A DNA stretch of 64,000 nucleotides. It comes from Pseudomonadota bacterium (GTDB taxonomy: Bacteria; Pseudomonadota; Gammaproteobacteria; UBA9214). Position numbers and translations under genes: made by a program. Positions 13,627 to 22,530 of this stretch are shown here, piece by piece. Every line of letters begins with the position of its first letter. Position 1 is the first letter of the stretch. The notes beneath the pieces are model-generated. The model saw only the letters and a program-made list of their open reading frames with translations. It searched no databases and had not been told where the DNA came from. The stretch lies in NCBI GenBank assembly GCA_039714975.1, contig JBDLIH010000003.1:10197-74196 (forward strand), read 5' to 3'.

Positions 13627-15036
13627 ATGTCTGCAACAAAAGTTATGAAGATGATGAAGGACAACGAGGTTGTATACGTTGACCTGCGTTTTACCGATAC
13701 CATTGGCAAGGAACAACATGTCACGATGCCAGCCAGCCAGGCGGGCAGCAGCCTGTTCAAGGACGGCAAGATGTTTGACGGTTCCAGCATCTCCGGCTGG
13801 AAGGGTATTAACGAATCAGACATGGTGCTGATGCCGGATACCACCACAGCTGTGATGGACCTGTTCAGCGATGAGCCGACCCTGATTATCCGTTGCGACA
13901 TTCTTGAGCCGACGACCATGCAGGGTTACGAACGTGATCCGCGTTCCATCGCCAAACGTGCCGAGGCCTACCTGAAATCCACCAAGGTTGCCGACACCGC
14001 TTTCTTTGGTCCCGAGCCGGAATTCTTTGTGCTGGACGATGTACGCTGGGGTGCCGACATGAGTGGCTCCTTCTGCAAGGTGGATTCGGAGGAAGCCTCC
14101 TGGAACTCCGAACGCGTTTTTGAAGACGGCAACATCGGTCATCGTCCGACCGTGAAGGGTGGTTATTTCCCGGTGCCGCCGGTTGATTCCCTGCATGACC
14201 TGCGTGGTGCCATGTGTCTTGGGCTGGAGGAGATGGGTGTCGCAGTGGAAGTCCATCACCATGAAGTGGCGACTGCCGGTCAGTGCGAAATCGGTACCCG
14301 CTTCGATACCCTGGTAAAGCGTGCTGATCAGAACCAGATTCTCAAGTACGTGGTACACAATGTGGCACACGGCTACGGCAAGACCGCCACTTTTATGCCC
14401 AAACCGATTGTGGGTGATAACGGTAGTGGTATGCATGTGCACCAGTCGCTGGCCAAGGCCGGCAAGAACATCTTCACCGGTAACAAGTACGGCGGCCTGT
14501 CACAGCAGGCACTGTATTACATCGGCGGTATCTTCAAACACGCACGTGCCCTGAATGCCTTTACCAATGCCAGTACCAACAGCTACAAGCGCCTGGTACC
14601 GGGGTTCGAAGCACCGGTGATGCTGGCCTACTCGGCCCGCAACCGTTCCGCCTCGGTACGTATTCCGTTTGAATCCAATCCGAAAGGCCGCCGCGTAGAG
14701 ATACGTTTTCCGGATTCCGCAGGTAACCCTTACCTGTGTTTTGCTGCCATGATGATGGCCGGTCTGGACGGCATCAGGAACAAGATCGATCCGGGCGATG
14801 CCATGGACAAGGATCTGTATGACCTGCCGCCGGAGGAAGGGAAGAAGATTCCGACCGTGTGCAGTTCGCTGGACGAGGCACTGGAAGCACTCGACGCTGA
14901 CCGTGAGTTCCTGACCGCCGGTGGCGTGTTCACTGACGATATGATCGACGGCTATATCGATCTGAAGATGGAAGAAGTTACGCGCCTGCGCATGACCACG
15001 CATCCGGTCGAGTTTGATATGTACTACAGTCTCTAG
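13627..15036 (+). CDS. glnA: Glutamine synthetase type I
   Basis: 469 aa; [32 protein letters not shown] is a GS-I N-terminus; adenylylation-site region present. Confidence 0.95.
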
Positions 15037-15058
15037 GCAGTCAGTGGTGTTGTACCAT

Positions 15059-15092
15059 AAAGCCCCGCTCTGGTAGCGGGGCTTTATTTTTT
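15059..15092 (+). terminator. Rho-independent terminator after glnA
   Basis: AGCCCCGCT-ctggt-AGCGGGGCT stem followed by TTTATTTTTT. Confidence 0.8.
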
Positions 15093-15313
15093 CCGCGGCA
15101 GTCATGGTGGATGTAGCTGAAGCCGCAGCTGATTAATTCACCCCGGTCCAGGGAGGATGAAGGCCGCGCACCAATCTGGTGCGTCTTTACGGCATCGGTT
15201 ATACTGCGGTGGCTCCCCCTGAGTATCCATATGTCCCTCATACTGAGTAAGCTACTGTATTTATTTGGTTATATTATATTTTCGGGCAGGGTTTCCCATT
15301 TGATGATGTTGGT

Positions 15314-16420
15314 TTGGTTCTTGCAATGAACCCTGCTATGCCAGGAGAGACCGTGCCACCTGAACTGAACGCCGATCGAATACTCGAGAGCATGGGCACG
15401 GCCGTATTGGTGTTCGATGCCCGGTGTCGGCTGATAACCATTAACCAGGCGGGTGAGATCATGCTTGCCCACAGCGCACGTCACGTCTGCGGTCGCCCGG
15501 TCCGGGAACTGGTTATCAATGCGGAAGTAATGGTCGAGCAAATCACCAACACCCTGACCTCCGAGCAGGTGGTGACGCAGCGCGGTTGTCTGCTGGAGTT
15601 ACCCGATGCGCCTGACTTGCGTGTTAACTGCACCTTTACACCGATGACGGACAATGCCGGCCGGCCCCGTGTACTGGTGGAACTGCGCCAGATCAATCAC
15701 CACCTGCGCATTGAGCAGGAGGAACGCCTGATTACACAACAGCAAGCCACGCATGAACTGTTGCGCGGGCTTGCACACGAAATCAAGAACCCGCTGGGCG
15801 GCTTGCGTGGTGCTGCGCAATTACTGGAACGCGAAATCAGCGATGATGCGTTGCAGGAATATACACATATCATTATCAGCGAGGCAGATCGCCTGCAGGC
15901 ATTGCTGGACCGTATGCTGGGCCCCAACAGTTTGCCCAGCGTCCAGGCAGTCAATATCCATGATGTGCTCGAGCATGTGCGTGAACTGGTACAGGTCGAG
16001 GCGGGTGATGGCTTGCAGCTTCGCCAGGACTATGACCCGAGCCTGCCGGATCTGCAGGCCGACCGTGATCTGCTGCTGCAAGCCATGCTTAACATCGTGC
16101 GCAATGCGGCGCAGGCGCTGGAAAACGACGGTGTTATCACTTTGCGTACCCGCATACGGCGTAGTTTTAATATCGGCAGCCGCAAGCATCGCCTCGTTGC
16201 ATGTATAGAAGTGATTGATAACGGCCCCGGTATTAAAGAAGAGCTGCGCAAGCAGATTTTTTACCCGATGATTACCGGTCGCAGTGACGGTACTGGCCTG
16301 GGGCTTTCCATCGCACAGGCGCTGATCAGCCGTCACCAGGGGCTGATTGAATGTACCAGTCAACCGGGTGAAACCGTGTTTACCATATTGCTACCACTGG
16401 AAGGAGAGCATGAATCATAA
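15314..16420 (+). CDS. glnL: Nitrogen regulation sensor histidine kinase NtrB (NRII)
   Basis: H-box HELLRGLAHEIKNPLGGLRGAAQLL; HATPase N/G boxes; followed by ntrC. The start is ambiguous: TTG 15314, ATG 15326 or ATG 15338. Confidence 0.88.
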   Translation: MVLAMNPAMPGETVPPELNADRILESMGTAVLVFDARCRLITINQAGEIMLAHSARHVCGRPVRELVINAEVMVEQITNTLTSEQVVTQRGCLLELPDAPDLRVNCTFTPMTDNAGRPRVLVELRQINHHLRIEQEERLITQQQATHELLRGLAHEIKNPLGGLRGAAQLLEREISDDALQEYTHIIISEADRLQALLDRMLGPNSLPSVQAVNIHDVLEHVRELVQVEAGDGLQLRQDYDPSLPDLQADRDLLLQAMLNIVRNAAQALENDGVITLRTRIRRSFNIGSRKHRLVACIEVIDNGPGIKEELRKQIFYPMITGRSDGTGLGLSIAQALISRHQGLIECTSQPGETVFTILLPLEGEHES

Positions 16421-17819
16421 CGAGACAATCTGTGTCATTGATGATGACAGTTCCATTCGCTGGGTGCTGGACAAGGCGCTCGGTAATGCAGGATTGAAGG
16501 TCGAGGGGTTCGAGTCTGCTGACAGTGCGTTGCTGGCCATCAGCAAGCAGGAGCCGGCAGTCATCATTACCGATATACGCATGCCTGGCATGGACGGGAT
16601 GGCACTGCTGGATCACATCAATAGCCATTACCCGGATGTGCCGGTCATTATCATGACGGCCCATTCCGATCTTGATAGCGCCGTATCCGCCTATAAAGGT
16701 GGTGCCTTCGAGTATCTGCCGAAACCGTTTGATGTGGACGAGGCCGTGGCACTGGTCACCCGGGCACTGGAGGTGCGTACCCGGCAAGCTGTTGGAACCG
16801 CACCGCAGGCAATAGAGGAAACACCGGAAATCATTGGCAAGGCACCGGCGATGCAGGAGGTGTTTCGCGCCATTGGCCGTCTGGCACACTCCAATGCCAC
16901 GGTACTGATCAATGGTGAATCGGGGACCGGAAAAGAGTTGGTGGCACAGGCGCTGCATCAGCACAGCGCGCGTGCGCAGCAGCCATTTGTGGCACTGAAC
17001 ATGGCGGCAATCCCCCGTGATCTGCTGGAATCCGAGCTGTTTGGTCATGAGCGGGGTGCCTTCACCGGGGCGCAAAACCGCCGTGCCGGACGTTTTGAAC
17101 AGGCCAATGGCGGTACGCTGATGCTCGATGAGATCGGTGATATGCCGGCCGAGCTGCAGACCCGCCTGTTACGGGTACTGGCGGACGGTGAGTTTTACCC
17201 GGTGGGCGGGCATACACCGAAGAAGGTCGATGTCCGTATTATCGCAGCAACCCACCAGAACCTGGAACAGCGTGTGCGGGACGGGCAGTTTCGTGAAGAC
17301 CTGTTTCATCGCCTGAATGTGATTCGCATCCAGATCCCGCCGCTGCGTGAACGCCGCGAGGACATCCCGCTGCTCATGCAACACTTCCTGCAACAGGCTG
17401 CGGTTGAACTTGAAGTCGAGACGAAGACGCTGACCGCCGCTGCGGCATCCAGGCTGTCGACACTGGACTGGCCCGGTAATGTACGCCAGCTTGAAAATTT
17501 ATGTCGCTTGTTAACGGTGATGGCACCCGGTCAGGAAATCCATATCGAGGACCTGCCGGGTGAATTGCTTGAGGCAGAGGCCAGCGGGTCTGAGGCGTCA
17601 GCAGACTGGCGAGGCTTATTGCGTCAATGGGCGCAACAGCAGCTGGCGGGAGGGGCAGAGCGCCTGCTGGATGAGGCATTGCCGGACTTTGAGCGCGTAC
17701 TCATAGACGTTGCGCTGCAGCAGACCGGCGGGCGTCGCCAGGATGCGGCACGCTTGCTGGGGTGGGGGCGGAATACCCTCACACGCAAGCTGAAGGAGTT
17801 TGAAGGCACAAATTCCTAG
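16410..17819 (+). CDS. glnG: Nitrogen regulation response regulator NtrC (sigma-54-dependent)
   Basis: Receiver domain, AAA+ ESGTGKE and the GAFTGA loop, C-terminal HTH. ATG 16410 is preceded by AAGGAGAG and overlaps the ntrB stop by 11 nt. Confidence 0.93.
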   Translation: MNHNETICVIDDDSSIRWVLDKALGNAGLKVEGFESADSALLAISKQEPAVIITDIRMPGMDGMALLDHINSHYPDVPVIIMTAHSDLDSAVSAYKGGAFEYLPKPFDVDEAVALVTRALEVRTRQAVGTAPQAIEETPEIIGKAPAMQEVFRAIGRLAHSNATVLINGESGTGKELVAQALHQHSARAQQPFVALNMAAIPRDLLESELFGHERGAFTGAQNRRAGRFEQANGGTLMLDEIGDMPAELQTRLLRVLADGEFYPVGGHTPKKVDVRIIAATHQNLEQRVRDGQFREDLFHRLNVIRIQIPPLRERREDIPLLMQHFLQQAAVELEVETKTLTAAAASRLSTLDWPGNVRQLENLCRLLTVMAPGQEIHIEDLPGELLEAEASGSEASADWRGLLRQWAQQQLAGGAERLLDEALPDFERVLIDVALQQTGGRRQDAARLLGWGRNTLTRKLKEFEGTNS

Positions 17820-17948: not shown

Positions 17949-19955
17949 ATGCGGCCTGAGAGGTTGACGAGTCGGCTCCGTCTGGTGCTCAGGTGCGGTT
18001 CCCTTGCCTGCCTGATCAGTACCATGACATACCCTGTGGCTGCCGAAACAACTGATGCCCCCGGGTCTGAGGCTGATCCAGCCGCAGCCTATGTAGACCA
18101 GTTGATTGAACCGCAGGCAGCGGACGGCGAGTTGTTCCCGGAGTATGAAGAGGTACAGGAGCCGGAAGGTTATCGCAGCTTCAGCACCGAGTATCGCCAT
18201 TATCAGCAAGACCTGGACCGTGCCGGCAAGTCCTATGAGGATGGCCTGATCTTTCATGGTCGCCATGAAACGCGTGATTATGGTGAGTTCGAAATGCTGG
18301 CGACGGCACGCTATATGCGCCCGCCTGGCAGTCTGCAGGAGAGCGACAACAGCGGCGGTCGCCTGACTTTGCGGCAGTACGGCTTTGCGGTCAATGAAGA
18401 CTGGCTGCTCGATAACAGCCTCGGTATCCTGCGCAGTGATACAGACCCGCTATTGAGCAGCAGTTATCGTATTAATCTGCCCTCGACGCTTGTATCGGGC
18501 CTGAGAAACTGGTCGCGCAACGACCGTAGCAGTGTGCGATTCAGTGCCGGGAAGATCGGTATCCTGGGTGTCGGGCGTATCGAGGATTTTGAATTCACTT
18601 CCGGCACCATGGCGTCGATGGGCTTGAGCCACTCGCTGAATCCCCGCTGGCATGCGGCGGCACAACTGATTGCCGTTAATGATTCCGATACCGTTGCGGA
18701 TCATGAGAGTGGCGCCATGGTGCTGCAATACCAGAGTCAGGATAAACGTCACCGTTACACGGGTCATGCATTATTCGACAGCGAGGGCAGTAACGGCATC
18801 TGGCTGGATGGTGATGACCGGCTGGGTCGCTGGCGGCATCGCTACGGCATCTTCAGGCTGGACCCGGATCTGCTGTGGAGTGATGCCACCATTACCGATG
18901 ACCAGCAGGGTCTCTATACGCGTTCGGAATTACGTTCACCACGCTACAACCTGACGGTTGGCACCGACTTCAATGAGAACAATGTGGAGAATCGTGCAGA
19001 CCGGCCACTAAGCCGGACAAGCAACCTGTTTGTCACCGGCAACCGCCGCTTTCTGCGATCCACGAGCCTGGGCGGTACCGCGAGCGTTAACAGGGTGGAC
19101 CCGCGCAATACCCTTGCCGGCGAGGAAAAACGTGCGCTCAGGCTGTCGACTTATGTCCAGCAGCGATTCGGATTCGGCACCAGTCGACTCGAGGTCTTCA
19201 TCGCCGCTATCGAGGAGGGCAGTGACGAGGGTGATGTGCACGGCGTCATCTGGGACCAGAGCTGGAACCTGTCACGGCAGTTATCGCTATCGACGACACT
19301 GTCCCACGAAAAGAGTGACGGTCTGGTCAGTGATGAGCAACGTGACTCGGCCAGTATCCTTTTTTCTCACAGTATTACCCCTGATCTGGACTGGAATGGC
19401 AGCGCCAACTACACCCGTGTGAAAACAGCAGGCCGTGCCGATACGGACAATTACAATGCTACGCTCGGGGCGGGGTGGCAGTTCCTGCGCAACTGGGCTG
19501 CGCGTCTGGATTTAACCTGGACCCAGGCCGAGGAGTCCGTCGGTGTCCTGGCAGACGCCTTTAATGTTAACGAAAAAACGCTGCTGCTGAGTATCAGGCA
19601 CAGCGTGCGTGGTGGCCGGCCGTTTATGACTGCCGGAAACCGTACCGGCTCATCCGGCTACGGTGAGATCAGTGGCGAGGTGTTCTATGACGCCAACCGC
19701 GACGGTGAGCGCCAGGCTGGCGAGCGCCCTGCCAGCGGTGTGTTTGTCTATCTGGACGGGCGCTATGAGCGGGTCACGGACAAGCAGGGACGTTTTACCT
19801 TTAACACGGTCCCGGCCGGTGAGCATGCCGTCAGGCTTGCCATTGAAGACCTGCCATTGCCGTGGGGGCTGGAGGATGAATCACCGCTGCCAGTGGTGGT
19901 GTCCGTGCGTCAGGACAGCGTGGTCAATTTTGCACTGACACGTATTAACGAATAA
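17949..19955 (+). CDS. Secreted or outer-membrane hypothetical protein (668 aa) with a C-terminal Cna-B/SdrD-B/carboxypeptidase-regulatory-like beta-sandwich domain
   Basis: N-terminal signal peptide. The long central region is rich in amphipathic beta-strand-like segments, suggesting a barrel. The C-terminus GEISGEVFYDANRDGERQAGERPASGVFVYLDG...KQGRFTFNTVPAGEHAVRL matches the Cna-B/CarboxypepD_reg pattern. Confidence 0.55.
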   Translation: MRPERLTSRLRLVLRCGSLACLISTMTYPVAAETTDAPGSEADPAAAYVDQLIEPQAADGELFPEYEEVQEPEGYRSFSTEYRHYQQDLDRAGKSYEDGLIFHGRHETRDYGEFEMLATARYMRPPGSLQESDNSGGRLTLRQYGFAVNEDWLLDNSLGILRSDTDPLLSSSYRINLPSTLVSGLRNWSRNDRSSVRFSAGKIGILGVGRIEDFEFTSGTMASMGLSHSLNPRWHAAAQLIAVNDSDTVADHESGAMVLQYQSQDKRHRYTGHALFDSEGSNGIWLDGDDRLGRWRHRYGIFRLDPDLLWSDATITDDQQGLYTRSELRSPRYNLTVGTDFNENNVENRADRPLSRTSNLFVTGNRRFLRSTSLGGTASVNRVDPRNTLAGEEKRALRLSTYVQQRFGFGTSRLEVFIAAIEEGSDEGDVHGVIWDQSWNLSRQLSLSTTLSHEKSDGLVSDEQRDSASILFSHSITPDLDWNGSANYTRVKTAGRADTDNYNATLGAGWQFLRNWAARLDLTWTQAEESVGVLADAFNVNEKTLLLSIRHSVRGGRPFMTAGNRTGSSGYGEISGEVFYDANRDGERQAGERPASGVFVYLDGRYERVTDKQGRFTFNTVPAGEHAVRLAIEDLPLPWGLEDESPLPVVVSVRQDSVVNFALTRINE

Positions 19956-19969
19956 CGCCCGGTGAAGAC

Positions 19970-20773
19970 CTATTCCAGCGTGGTGTCCACCTTCTGCCGG
20001 CCGCCCTGCCATTCGATCAGCCCCTTGAGTTTAAGCGGGGGCGTCAGGGTGACGGCCTTTTCACCTTCCGCGGTTGCTTGCCAGAGGGTGACAGGGCGTG
20101 TTTGCCCGGGAAGAATCGGCGTCTGGGCCAGGATGAAATCAATCTTTTGACCACGGGCATCGCGGCCTTGCAGAAAGCCGTCAGGCCGGCCATGGGCGTT
20201 ACCGGTGTTTTCCAGCAAGGCCACCGGTGTCAGTTGTTCGTTAACGTTCCGCAGTTCCAGTGACTGCAGCGACAGCACCGGTGCGGCATCGCCTACTGTG
20301 ACGTAGATAATAATTGCGATGCGTCCTTCTACCGGAAAACGGATATTCCTGGCGCGTGCCATGACACCTTCATCATCACCGGGTTCAATGAGTATCGCCA
20401 GGCGACATTCACCGGCAGGGGCCTGCTCCGGAATATGCAATTCAAAACGGTAGCGTTTTCCCGACTGTGGTTGCAGGCGTATTGCGCGCCGTTCAATGCG
20501 TGCCCAGGGGCGACAACTGCCCGGTTGCAGTTCGGGTGGAAAGATGGTCAGTCCGCCGCCCTCCGACAGGTCCCAGTCGGCTGTGCGGATCGAGTATACA
20601 GCCGCAGTATCACCGGCATTTTCGATGTCGACGATTTCGCGAACCACTGAGCCGGCTTTACCGTGCAGTTCGAAACGCGGCGGGGACACCATGGCCGAAA
20701 AACCGGCCCCCCAGGCACTGTTTACAAGGCAGGCAAGGATGAAAACCAGCAGGCAGGAAGACTTTTTTGGCAT
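19970..20773 (-). CDS. Periplasmic pilus/fimbrial assembly chaperone-like protein (PapD-like N-domain)
   Basis: Signal peptide. AMVSPPRFELHGKAGSVVREIVDIENAGDTAAVYSIRTADW resembles the PapD_N pattern (V.P.R.x. ...V.N.G. ...W). 267 aa, similar to CsuC/PapD sizes. Confidence 0.55.
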   Translation of the reverse strand: MPKKSSCLLVFILACLVNSAWGAGFSAMVSPPRFELHGKAGSVVREIVDIENAGDTAAVYSIRTADWDLSEGGGLTIFPPELQPGSCRPWARIERRAIRLQPQSGKRYRFELHIPEQAPAGECRLAILIEPGDDEGVMARARNIRFPVEGRIAIIIYVTVGDAAPVLSLQSLELRNVNEQLTPVALLENTGNAHGRPDGFLQGRDARGQKIDFILAQTPILPGQTRPVTLWQATAEGEKAVTLTPPLKLKGLIEWQGGRQKVDTTLE

Positions 20774-20775
20774 GA

Positions 20776-21252
20776 TTAGAACGTTTCGATATCAAACAGG
20801 GGTTGAAAGCGCAGGTTGTTGTATACCTGCCGGGCATCGATGTCAAAGGTGATGTCAAAGACATCGCTCATGACGGGTTCGGTAATCTCGCCCTCAAACA
20901 ACTTGGCGCGGTTGCCGGCCGTTATGGCGCCATTCGAGAACAGGCCATTGGTTTGCCAGCTCATGCGCAAGGCGGATGAGTCGCCGGTGCCGCGGATATT
21001 GATGGGCAGGCGGATGAAGATCTTGCCGCGCTTGCCAACAAAACGCCTCGTGTTCAGGCGGATTTCAACACGACGTGCACGGGCCGTGAGGGCGTTCAGT
21101 TCCCGTTCGTCGAGGTTTTCAGTATTTCGTGTCTGTTTCCAGTCGAGATCAAGGTCAAACTGTTGTTGTGTAGAGAGGCTGTCATCGAGCCTTTCAGCGC
21201 AGGCCGGCAGGACATTGAATACGAGCAACAGAAGCAGCAGGCCGTTTTTCAT
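20776..21252 (-). CDS. Secreted hypothetical protein (158 aa), third gene of the chaperone operon
   Basis: Signal peptide MKNGLLLLLLVFNVLPACA. It overlaps the upstream gene by 4 nt and lies 2 nt from the chaperone start. Confidence 0.5.
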   Translation of the reverse strand: MKNGLLLLLLVFNVLPACAERLDDSLSTQQQFDLDLDWKQTRNTENLDERELNALTARARRVEIRLNTRRFVGKRGKIFIRLPINIRGTGDSSALRMSWQTNGLFSNGAITAGNRAKLFEGEITEPVMSDVFDITFDIDARQVYNNLRFQPLFDIETF

Positions 21253-21812
21253 GGCACGGCAAAGGTGTAGGTGGCACGCCCTTTGTAGGTGCCCGCTTCG
21301 AGCGCCAGCGTGTTGGCATAACGGAAGGTGAGAATGTCATCGAGGTTGTGCGGCGAACCGGGGAAGTCCACGATCGGCTGGTCGATGCTGCCGGTAAAGG
21401 TGCCTGACGGAATGTCACCGTCCCGTGCGGTCCAGCTGATCTGGGAAAACGGGATGGTACCGGTGCTGCCGGGATCATCGATCGCAAGCGGATTTGTGAA
21501 CGAATCGACCGTCAGAAAGGCCGTCAGCGGGTTGGCAGCGGATGCGCGTAATCGCGCGTGGATTCTGATGGTGGGTGTTCCGGTAATGGCACTGCCGTCA
21601 CCCACCCGTCCTGCCGGGACAGAGAAGGCAACCTCGCTGATGTTCCCGCCTCCGTCACCGACGCGGATATACAGCCGGGGAACGGCCCTGTTGTTCAGGT
21701 TAAAAATGATGGCATCGACAGTGGATGACCACAGTGCACAGCAGATCAGGGCACTTTTGCATAGCGATCGCAGACGACACCCGGACAAGATTGGCAACAA
21801 TGGCTGCATCAT
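21249..21812 (-). CDS. Secreted pilin-like subunit (187 aa), paralog of the 206-aa protein
   Basis: Signal peptide and an N-terminal alternating-hydrophobic segment IIFNLNN..PRLYIRV. Gly/Ser/Thr-rich core. C-terminal motif YKGRATYTFAVP is shared with the neighbour (QVTYTAAIP). Confidence 0.5.
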   Translation of the reverse strand: MMQPLLPILSGCRLRSLCKSALICCALWSSTVDAIIFNLNNRAVPRLYIRVGDGGGNISEVAFSVPAGRVGDGSAITGTPTIRIHARLRASAANPLTAFLTVDSFTNPLAIDDPGSTGTIPFSQISWTARDGDIPSGTFTGSIDQPIVDFPGSPHNLDDILTFRYANTLALEAGTYKGRATYTFAVP

Positions 21813-21909: not shown

Positions 21910-22530
21910 CTAGGGTATTGCTGCCGTGTAGGTAACTTGACCACCGGTTGCCACGGCACCGTCACCGTAGGTACCTGCCGGGTAATCAGCGGTGTGGTCG
22001 TAAACATAGGTCCAGACGGTATTGTAATTGGTTATTTTGGCATTTATGTTCGGCATCGGTGTTGAGGTGCCACCACCGGCATTCGAGAGTGTGGGGGGAC
22101 TAAAAGCGGGGATACCACTTGACGCAAGGATTTCGGAGTAGGGGATTTGGTCTCCGAAACCGTTGCCGAGCCCCGCACCACCACTGTTATTGGTTTCAGT
22201 GATGATGACATCTCCGGCATTGCTGAACAGGGCTGCGGTGACGGCACCACCACCCTGATCACCACCGCTACCCGTGATATCGGTGCTGCCAATGGCGCCA
22301 TTACCCACGTCGGTAGCTTGCAGGTTGAATTCAATAAGGTCTATGTTACCGGTACCTGCCTCACCGACCTGAAAGCGCAGTACACCGGGGATGGTAATAC
22401 GGAAATCCAGTTTTGCAGACGCAGAAGGATTTGCACCGTTGTCACTGTTTGATTCGGCCAGCAGCGTGCCAGGCAGGCCGCTGATCACCACAAAAAATGC
22501 CGTAAGACAATGTTTATAAAAGTTTTTCAT
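21910..22530 (-). CDS. Secreted pilin-like subunit (206 aa), first gene of the operon
   Basis: Signal peptide. AKLDFRITIPGVLRFQV is donor-strand-like. Gly-rich core. C-terminus TYGDGAVATGGQVTYTAAIP. Confidence 0.5.
   Translation of the reverse strand: MKNFYKHCLTAFFVVISGLPGTLLAESNSDNGANPSASAKLDFRITIPGVLRFQVGEAGTGNIDLIEFNLQATDVGNGAIGSTDITGSGGDQGGGAVTAALFSNAGDVIITETNNSGGAGLGNGFGDQIPYSEILASSGIPAFSPPTLSNAGGGTSTPMPNINAKITNYNTVWTYVYDHTADYPAGTYGDGAVATGGQVTYTAAIP

Follow-up and report, generated by a model that had tools for sequence, protein, structure and literature searches.

A predicted plug-less outer-membrane barrel linked to a WxLIP-related secreted protein as a candidate usher-like translocon of an uncharacterised assembly pathway

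What does an outer-membrane protein do when its gene abuts, on the opposite strand, a small operon for secreted proteins that resembles a fimbrial operon in its layout? This question is raised by a 64,000-nucleotide stretch of DNA (the window), for which a preliminary description had suggested a short and divergent fimbrial usher, or else an unrelated outer-membrane protein, next to a chaperone operon. We call the protein OMP, its chaperone-like neighbour CH, the subunit-like proteins W and the small orphan s158. The features of the locus are as follows.

17949..19955, + strand: OMP gene, putative usher-like outer-membrane barrel with C-terminal Ig-like domain (from the ORF, an AlphaFold2 (AF2) model, homologues and operon linkage)
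17949..18044, + strand: probable Sec signal peptide of OMP, residues 1–32, cleavage after VAA (read by eye)
18087..18110, + strand: conserved motif A-Y-V-D-Q-L-I-E of OMP, residues 47–54, inside the disordered N-terminal lead
18174..19613, + strand: predicted 26-stranded transmembrane β-barrel of OMP, residues 76–555 (DSSP of the AF2 model)
19659..19943, + strand: C-terminal SdrD_B/Cna-B-type β-sandwich of OMP, residues 571–665 (Pfam, PDB profile matches, AF2)
19970..20773, − strand: CH, 267-aa secreted protein, the "chaperone"; a WxLIP (DUF916/DUF3324) homologue, not PapD by sequence
20776..21252, − strand: s158, single-copy 158-aa secreted orphan (alignment, copy count)
21249..21812, − strand: W paralog of 187 aa, subunit-like secreted protein ending ...ATYTFAVP (iterated profiles)
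21910..22530, − strand: W paralog of 206 aa, first gene of the operon, ending ...VTYTAAIP (AF2 pLDDT 87.2)

The OMP ORF starts with ATG, encodes 668 aa and is separated from the convergent CH ORF by a 14-bp spacer (19956–19969), exactly as first described. It can be regarded as real, since a word-index search found 62 homologue clusters (31–100% identity) and an exhaustive profile search hundreds of full-length representatives. The signal peptide of the preliminary description is probable: read by eye, the N-terminus (MRPERLTSRLRLVLRCGSLACLISTMTYPVAA, with ETT following the cleavage site) resembles a Sec signal peptide, and homologues have equivalent N-termini. The identical protein from a MAG (P0001) starts later in the NCBI annotation and is 639 aa long. 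With this start the signal peptide would be lost, and it is probably too short.

Residues 1–67 have pLDDT <50 and form a variable Pro/Ala-rich linker that carries one short conserved motif, itself at pLDDT <50 in the monomer AF2 model. The family consensus of the motif, Y-x-D-[QRH]-[LY]-I, was present in every lineage inspected; Y48, D50 and L52 are invariant in alignment A1, and in the diverse alignment A9 the Y and D are nearly so. The motif is a candidate docking or plug peptide. A LysM-like N-terminal domain (GYWIV..GEHL...) considered for long OMP homologues had no Pfam support at E ≤ 1 and was withdrawn.

The AF2 model of OMP (mean pLDDT 82.1, pTM 0.75) places 26 long β-strands in residues 76–555, most of them with pLDDT >90, and the outer-membrane barrel proposed earlier is thus borne out at the level of prediction. 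Longer connections between strands (mean ∼7.6 residues) alternate with short turns (mean ∼3.3 residues), the pattern that extracellular loops and periplasmic turns would give. As the strand number is even, both termini would lie on one side of the membrane, which in the model is inferred to be the periplasmic side. The longest connection has only 18 residues (163–180), and the barrel therefore has no inserted plug domain; of the barrel or plug that a structure prediction might have revealed, the first is predicted and the second is not. A barrel-only HMM aligned over its whole length in 86 loci and needed no large insertions, and the barrel plus Ig layout is conserved in all lineages.

The last ∼90 residues had been described as an SdrD_B/Cna-B or CarboxypepD_reg sandwich. 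Residues 576–630 match Pfam SdrD_B (PF17210) with 31.1 bits against a gathering score of 29.7 (E 2.8e-7), whereas residues 592–663 reach 22.7 bits for CarboxypepD_reg, below its threshold of 32.3. A diverse OMP family profile also matches the B-domains of SdrD and UafA in the PDB (E 4.8e-12 and 1.6e-8), and the sandwich was found in 83 of 89 barrel ORFs. From the predicted topology this Ig-like domain should be periplasmic. The PEP-CTERM system-associated outer-membrane protein model TIGR03016 gave 26.4 bits, with a cut-off of 90.85 and a match confined to 84 barrel residues, and no PEP-CTERM genes were found within the module. Neither Pfam nor NCBIfam has a family for the barrel, W or s158.

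CH had been taken for a chaperone, but by sequence it is not PapD-like. PapD_N was matched by 0/39 CH family members at E ≤ 1, the family profile retrieved no FimC, PapD, Caf1M or CsuC from the PDB at E ≤ 10, and hhalign against FimC gave a probability of 0.7%. Sequence comparison instead relates CH to the WxL-interacting protein (WxLIP) of Gram-positive bacteria, to which it is homologous at the family level. Among families CH reaches only WxLIP_PGBD (PF06030), in about half of its members (20/39, best E 1e-7). The CH family profile matches EfmWxLIP1 (PDB 9i25_C, E 2e-4; its structure is also in entry 9i1y, and 9i25 contains a WxL protein as well), and hhalign against two genuine WxLIPs gave a probability of 88.9% (E 2.4e-6, 195 columns). 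The window's own copy of CH had no Pfam match at E ≤ 10. Basic residues that are invariant in CH include R33, R88, R95, R109 and R124. Some JGI records label CH family members "fimbrial chaperone" or "PapD".

WxLIPs consist of two perpendicular Ig-like domains, with a β-hairpin that is predicted by AlphaFold2 to insert into the WxL partner, and they are defined by a C-terminal transmembrane anchor together with clustering with at least two WxL-domain proteins (PMC10599100). Neither the anchor nor such neighbours were found for CH; its C-terminus (...IEWQGGRQKVDTTLE) has no hydrophobic tail and no transmembrane helix.

The W proteins form one family, as iterated profiles started from the 187-aa and 206-aa proteins (p187 and p206) converge on the same set of ORFs. 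The paralogs fall into distinct N-terminal classes but have an invariant C-terminus, ...V-T-Y-T-x-x-x-P, in which the last residue is Pro in 189 of 199 ORFs, position −6 is Tyr in 164 and position −5 is Thr in 190. Proteins encoded by the first gene carry a conserved alternating-hydrophobic N-terminal segment, e.g., H-V-D-F-x-I-V-I-P; in the mature N-terminal region of the 206-aa protein (W206), which is likely the major subunit, it reads K-L-D-F-R-I-T-I-P. W proteins had no Pfam or PDB sequence match, Fimbrial (PF00419) included, and hhalign against FimA/I/F/G gave a probability of 4%. In a Foldseek search with the W206 model, chaperone-usher pilins took 6 of the 8 best places among PDB entries (three of them FimG, the others CS20, ETEC type I and the pilin domain of PapG), all of them weak (best probability 0.96, best E 6.7e-3, TM 0.3–0.45). 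That W might be WxL domains was considered and is not supported (hhalign against genuine WxL proteins 4.9%; Pfam WxL in 0/38 alignment members at E ≤ 1; no WxL protein among the fold matches listed for W). The C-terminal motifs of the two are superficially alike, AGTYxGRVTYTxxxP for W and AKSYxTTLTWxLSNTP for WxL.

For s158, present as a single copy in 77/80 loci and with the mature N-terminus x-R/F-L/V-D-D-S, no relationship to the PDB, Pfam or the W family was found. Two identities were tried and rejected. A diverged W paralog gave an hhalign probability of 6%, and an LptE-like lipoprotein plug is at odds with the Cys of the "LPAC" sequence in the window, which is not conserved; the homologues have ordinary AxA signal-peptidase I sites.

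Together these genes make up a self-contained five-family module with W in 2–5 copies and s158, CH and OMP in one copy each. In most lineages the genes form a co-directional operon in the order W paralogs (2–3), s158, CH, OMP, and outside the window's clade the OMP gene lies co-directional and immediately 3′ of the CH gene. Co-occurrence with the neighbouring operon, which the preliminary description had named as one of the checks, proved essentially obligate in both directions. When loci were fetched via CH, an OMP homologue was directly adjacent in 78/80 genome loci, 49 co-directional (mostly with 0–4 bp spacing) and 29 convergent as in the window; when they were fetched via OMP, CH was linked in 68/68 evaluable metagenome loci. 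The CH–OMP linkage is kept where the flanking genes differ completely (loci L003 and L004), and no other gene family near the module occurred in more than 17/80 loci. In locus L084, relaxed HMM searches for OMP were negative, and a hidden divergent copy was rejected, the large downstream ORFs being an IclR regulator, a molybdopterin oxidoreductase and one other ORF. A sigma-54 promoter tying the module to ntrBC was also rejected: neither the OMP gene nor the W operon has a match on its 5′ side, matches across the window were as frequent as by chance, and synteny with ntrBC is lineage-specific.

Environmental Gamma- and Betaproteobacteria carry the module widely, with hundreds of 50%-identity clusters for OMP and >2,000 clusters at 90% identity for CH. 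One carrier, Lysobacter sp. CA199 (L086), is cultured. Our literature searches for a prior description of the module returned nothing specific, and found no paper that joins DUF916 with Gram-negative bacteria and the outer membrane.

Because OMP is always found with four genes for small secreted proteins, it is probably the export pore of a pilus-like surface-assembly system, and we consider it reasonably probable that it is a translocon of a new, usher-like kind, serving a fibre or surface-assembly pathway that has yet to be characterised. Several lines of evidence point this way. Sec-exported β-rich subunit paralogs, a chaperone-like protein and a large barrel follow one another as in the operons of chaperone-usher systems (FimC/FimD, PapD/PapC and the archaic CsuC/CsuD), and the linkage across loci shows that the genes are coupled. 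The OMP model combines a 26-stranded barrel with a presumably periplasmic β-sandwich, as ushers do, in all lineages, and FimD and PapC lead its Foldseek ranking against the PDB. The best folds for W are mostly pilin domains (FimG, CS20, PapG). The C-terminal residues of W, which include a conserved aromatic, are strictly fixed and bring to mind chaperone-usher pilins, whose C-terminus is anchored. The first-gene W proteins bring the alternating-hydrophobic segment, and CH the homology to a protein that is predicted to insert a β-hairpin into its partner.

We infer a conduit role for OMP, strand complementation, polymerisation of W and gating of the plug-less barrel, and the pathway may run as follows. 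W and s158 would be exported by Sec. CH would then hold the W subunits in the periplasm by β-strand complementation, anchoring their invariant C-terminus, and the CH:W complex could dock on the periplasmic face of OMP through the SdrD_B-type domain and/or the N-terminal Y-x-D-Q-L-I peptide. Folded W subunits might cross the wide 26-stranded barrel to the cell surface and polymerise there, probably through donor-strand exchange via the alternating-hydrophobic segment near their N-terminus, giving a thin fibre or an array on the surface.

Among the other explanations, the one that survives best is that OMP is no export pore and acts instead as a sheath or anchor. The barrel would then permanently enclose s158 or a W protein, as MtrB encloses MtrA and LptD encloses LptE, and the result would be a static complex spanning the outer membrane, such as a receptor at the surface, an adhesin stalk or a conduit for non-protein substrates, with CH as assembly factor. 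MtrB and LptD share with OMP the predicted number of strands and the size, and are wide barrels with room for a protein partner in the lumen; MtrB (PDB 6r2q) has the highest TM-score of all PDB matches to OMP (0.44/0.45). The absence of a plug in OMP itself and the strictly single copy of s158, as for a stoichiometric plug or partner, would suit such a complex, and the WxLIP relatives of CH sit in static surface complexes, not pili (PMC10599100, PMC9772566). Yet neither MtrB nor LptD has sequence similarity to OMP or a C-terminal SdrD_B domain, and the module holds no cytochromes, haem-binding features or LptE-like lipoprotein, the Cys in the s158 signal peptide not being conserved. The 2–5 W paralogs, which differ in N-terminal class and share an invariant C-terminus, look more like the major and minor subunits of a polymer, and their best fold matches are pilins. 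We regard the sheath as unlikely.

A true but extremely divergent classical usher, kin to FimD, PapC and CsuD, that has lost its plug and N-terminal domain is improbable. The fimbrial usher is a 24-stranded translocation barrel with a plug (a β-sandwich of ∼80–90 aa) between strands 6 and 7, a folded N-terminal periplasmic domain (∼125 aa) that recruits chaperone–subunit complexes, and two C-terminal periplasmic Ig-like domains, CTD1 and CTD2. Feature by feature, the OMP model has 26 strands, no plug, only a short peptide in a disordered lead where ushers have a folded N-terminal domain, and a single C-terminal domain of SdrD_B type instead of PapC_C. Usher (PF00577), PapC_N and PapC_C had no Pfam match at E ≤ 0.01 in the window's OMP and 10 distant members, and profiles A1 and A9 (Neff 6.3) returned no usher from all PDB sequences at E ≤ 10. 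Hhalign of the OMP family against FimD gave a probability of 0.06–0.2%, a test weakened by a FimD template that was a single sequence. The Foldseek comparison with ushers that had been proposed as a check gave a divided answer. FimD and PapC do rank first by E-value (8e-13 to 1e-9, probability 1.00), but the superpositions are poor (TM ∼0.4, rmsd 17–19 Å) and no better than that with the 26-stranded MtrB, and the large unrelated barrels Cir, PirA, BtuB and the Occ porins likewise reach probability 1.00. The operon logic and the order of barrel and β-sandwich are shared with chaperone-usher systems, but no component of the module has detectable sequence or profile homology to theirs (PapD_N/C, PF00345/PF02753, and Fimbrial are absent as well), the chaperone-like partner is of the WxLIP (DUF916) family, and s158 is an extra single-copy orphan. 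The usher candidate of the preliminary description thus stands as the dedicated partner of the abutting operon, with fimbrial-like gene order, and falls as a family member: OMP does not belong to the ushers, and we propose that it serves a functionally usher-like system.

The module could also be a diderm version of the WxL/Csc complex, in which CH binds peptidoglycan and W in the periplasm, and OMP tethers the complex to the outer membrane via its periplasmic Ig domain without any protein export. In the WxL/Csc clusters of Bacillota, CscA is the WxLIP (DUF916, DUF3324 or PF11797, and a transmembrane helix), CscB and CscC are WxL proteins, and CscD is a small LPXTG protein. In favour of such a complex, CH is homologous to WxLIP, and WxLIP has a first domain with a peptidoglycan-binding annotation; the gene content is also parallel, with several small secreted paralogs (∼150–280 aa), one DUF916-type protein and one small accessory protein (PMC1534035). 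However, the host of the module is a diderm with an outer-membrane barrel added, CH lacks the membrane anchor, and no LPXTG protein or sortase belongs to the module. W proteins lack the D-x-R-G/W-x-L motif pair and detectable similarity to genuine WxL domains (hhalign probability 5%), and the WxL fold 9i25_A, whose presence in the Foldseek library is unconfirmed, is not among the 50 structural matches listed for W. A 26-stranded barrel of ∼480 residues would moreover be an extravagant tether, and we give this explanation little credence. That OMP is an unrelated outer-membrane protein, placed by chance beside the operon on the opposite strand and directly after glnA-ntrB-ntrC in the window, is refuted by adjacency in 78/80 and 68/68 loci of varied context and both orientations, down to 0–4 bp co-directional spacing, with the glnA-ntrBC synteny confined to the lineage.

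The usher-like pathway that we favour also bears comparison with the Pam pili of the Candidate Phyla Radiation, non-canonical donor-strand-exchange pili whose chaperone-usher-like chaperones fall outside the classical families and which extend the known diversity of such pathways beyond the textbook set (bioRxiv 10.64898/2026.03.03.709456). As described there, they differ from the module in being CPR-specific, in having membrane-anchored chaperones that are PapD/FimC-like by structure, and in having no outer-membrane barrel.

Tentatively, the module may represent a new class of chaperone-assisted donor-strand pathway for fibre or surface assembly in diderms, with a WxLIP-related chaperone and an independently evolved, plug-less, 26-stranded "usher" that has an SdrD_B-type periplasmic domain. 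Chaperone-usher pili are the textbook case of fibres assembled across the outer membrane without ATP, and to our knowledge all known classes (classical, alternative and archaic) share homologous ushers and PapD-like chaperones. The same logic without detectable homology would suggest that the strategy either is far older and more divergent than thought or has been invented more than once. If the proposal is true, usher function arose at least twice, and WxL/Csc clusters and the module are one ancient principle of assembly in its monoderm and diderm forms. The role of WxLIP/DUF916 proteins in WxL clusters is still debated, and the module offers a functional hypothesis for those of Gram-positive bacteria, namely that they would be strand-donating chaperones; with Lysobacter sp. 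CA199 as a carrier in culture, experiments on the system are feasible.

The barrel protein under study (OMP) is encoded by a real ORF, and 14 bp separate its stop from that of a convergent gene for a chaperone-like protein (CH), as noted in the preliminary description. Together with the small secreted protein s158 and two paralogous small secreted proteins (the W family), they make up the module, which in the window consists of:

17949–19955, plus strand, OMP, 668 aa
19970–20773, minus strand, CH, 267 aa, convergent with OMP
20776–21252, minus strand, s158, 158 aa, signal-peptide-like N-terminus
21249–21812, minus strand, W protein p187, 187 aa, signal-peptide-like N-terminus
21910–22530, minus strand, W protein p206, 206 aa, signal-peptide-like N-terminus

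The identical MAG protein at NCBI (P0001; ABFS24_01750, 639 aa) has its annotated start 29 codons downstream, which drops positions 17949–18035 and thereby removes the signal peptide. The N-termini of homologs support the 668-aa ORF as the probable form. OMP is preceded on the plus strand by glnA, ntrB and ntrC. In syntenic relatives (loci L001, L005, and L006) a DUF4124 gene separates glnA from ntrB; in the window, where the stretch 13627–17819 was compared, the two are only 278 bp apart, so this gene is absent from the window genome. Synteny with glnA–ntrBC is specific to the lineage, and the window showed no evident sigma-54 promoter for the module.

The suggested tie between OMP and the neighbouring operon was borne out across genomes. 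Using CH alone, 80 reference-genome loci were fetched, and the five families were mapped with HMMs. These loci belong to Gamma- and Betaproteobacteria (Steroidobacteraceae, Burkholderiales, Usitatibacter, Nevskiaceae, Luteimonas, Oceanococcus, and the isolate Lysobacter sp. CA199). An OMP homolog is directly adjacent to CH in 78 of them. One of the two exceptions is ended by a contig edge, while the other (L084:1–9574) is the only evaluable genome locus without an OMP homolog within 7 kb downstream, though W, s158, and CH are present. After CH, L084 has an extra W gene, followed by genes for an IclR regulator and a molybdopterin oxidoreductase. In the reverse test, 80 metagenome loci were fetched with the OMP alignment of the co-directional clade, and CH was found immediately upstream of OMP in 68/68 evaluable loci. 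Each other gene family near the module occurs in at most 17 of the 80 genome loci.

CH and OMP are convergent, as in the window, in 29 loci and co-directional in 49, typically with a gap of 0–4 bp. Given this co-directional majority, the canonical module is an operon of W paralogs, s158, CH, and OMP, and the last gene is simply inverted in the window's clade. There are two W paralogs in 38 loci and three in 34, and s158 is single copy in 77/80. The most distant OMP homologs from the word index (33% identity; L003 and L004) lie in wholly different genomic contexts, and a convergent gene set of ∼273, 160, 168–200, and 204 aa still abuts them. The linkage holds essentially without exception, and we have very little doubt that OMP is a dedicated partner of the operon. 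A betaproteobacterial MAG contig (L033:1–8742) carries two complete modules back to back in divergent orientation, an apparent duplication of the module. A complete module of the diderm type, with its outer-membrane barrel, was also found on a 5-kb contig of a "Halobacteria archaeon" MAG (L018, JABDRC010000035.1); the haloarchaeal label almost certainly reflects a binning contaminant.

ORF analysis, Pfam, and AlphaFold2 agreed with the earlier picture of OMP as a barrel with a C-terminal Ig-like domain. Pfam matched the C-terminal domain alone (SdrD_B, residues 576–630, 31.1 bits against a cut-off of 29.7), with a sub-threshold CarboxypepD_reg match to the same domain. In NCBIfam, ∼84 barrel residues aligned to a model for PEP-CTERM-associated OMPs, far below threshold (26 bits where 91 are needed). 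The AlphaFold2 model, built with a 60-sequence alignment, is confident (pLDDT 82.1, pTM 0.75) and predicts the following layout, shown with the conserved lead motif:

residues 1–67, disordered lead
window 18087–18110, plus strand, lead motif A47-Y-V-D-Q-L-I-E54, the window copy of Y-x-D-[QRH]-[LY]-I
residues 76–555, 26 long β-strands
between barrel and β-sandwich, short low-confidence linker
residues 571–665, β-sandwich

The inter-strand connections alternate between longer ones of 3–18 residues (mean ∼7.6) and tight turns of 2–5 residues, which fits predicted extracellular loops and periplasmic turns. As the strand number is even, the N-terminal lead and the Ig domain share one side, presumably the periplasm. 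According to this model, OMP is very likely an outer-membrane barrel with a periplasmic Ig domain. The barrel-plus-Ig layout is kept across homologs without large insertions. Their leads (55 to 220 aa) are variable, disordered, and Pro/Ala-rich except for the motif Y-x-D-[QRH]-[LY]-I, which is always present 20–40 residues ahead of the first strand in all lineages (L001–L086) and could be a docking or gating peptide. The homologs in L004, L022, L023, L025, and L029 have an extra conserved segment in their N-terminal ∼60–130 aa (GYWIV..GEHL.LIAQQFF.GDR...GARL.LP); an initial guess that it is LysM-like drew no Pfam match at E ≤ 1, which leaves it unassigned. In L028, L040, and L079 the OMP gene is broken into 2–3 ORFs with the remaining module intact, owing to frameshifts/pseudogenisation or to assembly errors.

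An exhaustive profile search with OMP gave 3,790 representatives at E ≤ 1e-10, of which 719 remained at the stricter E ≤ 1e-30. Among the best 150 matches, ∼110 are full-length, single-stretch proteins of about 620–980 aa, and the remainder are giant SdrD_B-repeat adhesins matched through the Ig domain only.

OMP had been proposed to be a short divergent usher or a secretion partner. The second part stands, as an assembly partner with usher-like logic, whereas membership of the usher family does not. Searches for Usher, PapC_N, or PapC_C gave no signal, also when a Neff-6.3 profile was run against every PDB sequence, and hhalign against FimD was negative. Unlike ushers, which have 24 strands, OMP has 26 predicted strands, no plug, no NTD, and one C-terminal domain of the SdrD_B type. 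By E-value, FimD and PapC led the Foldseek ranking, though at a TM of about 0.4; the best TM was to the 26-strand MtrB, and many unrelated large barrels also reached probability 1.00, so fold similarity is uninformative on ancestry.

The neighbouring gene, previously taken to encode a chaperone, has relatives other than PapD. Its family comprises 2,074 clusters at E ≤ 1e-3. PapD_N was matched by 0/39 members and WxLIP_PGBD (PF06030) by 20/39 (best 1e-7). Against the PDB, the CH profile found no PapD-like chaperones, and its only significant match was EfmWxLIP1 (9i25_C, 9i1y_A; E 2e-4). Alignment of CH with two genuine enterococcal WxLIPs from plasmids gave an hhalign probability of 88.9% (E 2.4e-6, 195 columns). 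The reference material included a WxL cluster (WxLIP and WxL; L088:3001–6530, E. faecalis plasmid NZ_CP124902.1), which adjoins genes for a lytic polysaccharide monooxygenase and a pectate-lyase-like adhesin. WxLIPs have a membrane anchor besides two perpendicular Ig-like domains, and in AlphaFold2 predictions a WxLIP β-hairpin inserts into the WxL partner (PMC10599100); CH differs in having no membrane anchor. This robust homology, the sole one of the module to anything characterised, ties the diderm module to Gram-positive WxL/Csc clusters, which have no outer-membrane component (PMC1534035, PMC9772566, PMC10599100). Our literature search found neither a paper describing the module nor one joining DUF916 with Gram-negative and outer membrane. 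The CH family alignment (A2; window 19970–20773) has invariant cysteines (C87, C123) and an invariant arginine cluster (R33, R63, R88, R95, R109, R124, R196), candidates for a disulfide and for a C-terminal-carboxylate-binding site.

The p187 and p206 profiles arrive at the same W family (∼200 ORFs, 86 loci), for which no sequence relatives were found in Pfam or PDB. By profile comparison, W resembles neither genuine WxL domains (4.9%) nor type 1 pilins (4%). Its C-terminus is fixed, with a final Pro in 189 of 199 ORFs, Tyr at −6 in 164, and Thr at −5 in 190. The first-gene W has a conserved alternating-hydrophobic segment ∼15 residues past the signal-peptide cleavage (e.g., H-V-D-F-x-I-V-I-P; K-L-D-F-R-I-T-I-P in the window), and the last W gene has a different, shorter N-terminus. 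A third, shorter subclass (∼145–160 aa) is first in the operon of Steroidobacteraceae-type loci and ends in ...[VIF]-C-T-V-S-x-P, with Cys in place of the Tyr at −6 (L047:4523–4975, L052:1506–1940, L063:4354–4803, L069:4473–4943, L079:4425–4901). The AlphaFold2 model of p206 is confident (pLDDT 87.2). Its PDB fold matches are all weak (0 at E ≤ 1e-3), and six of the eight best are chaperone-usher pilins (FimG three times, CS20, ETEC type I pilin, and the PapG pilin domain). The orphan s158 is exported by Sec and is not a lipoprotein.

OMP probably serves as an usher-like platform for assembly and export, given the gene order, the obligate coupling, and the wide barrel with its periplasmic β-sandwich. 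The CH relatives predicted to donate a strand argue for the same reading, as do the subunit-like W paralogs, whose C-terminus is invariant and whose best fold matches are pilin-like. In the periplasm, W subunits would be capped by CH, and the resulting CH:W complex would bind OMP at either its SdrD_B domain or its Y-x-D-Q-L-I peptide. Folded W subunits would then be threaded through the barrel and polymerise at the cell surface. The data show the linkage, the CH–WxLIP homology, and, as a prediction, the architecture; export, its gating, strand complementation, and polymerisation are inferences. Outside this module, the CPR Pam pilus (preprint 10.64898/2026.03.03.709456) is an example of a non-canonical donor-strand pilus whose chaperones are anchored. 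We lean toward an export pore or usher-like function for OMP, and a donor-strand-exchange fibre as the module product is a more tentative proposal, somewhat short of even. The chief rival reading is that the module forms a static complex (a sheath or anchor like MtrAB or LptDE) or else a WxL-like surface complex of diderms.

The overall case is built from comparative genomics and predicted structures. It describes a conserved, widespread, and unannotated chaperone-usher-like module, in which the chaperone-like protein is related to WxLIPs and the predicted barrel is plug-less with 26 strands.
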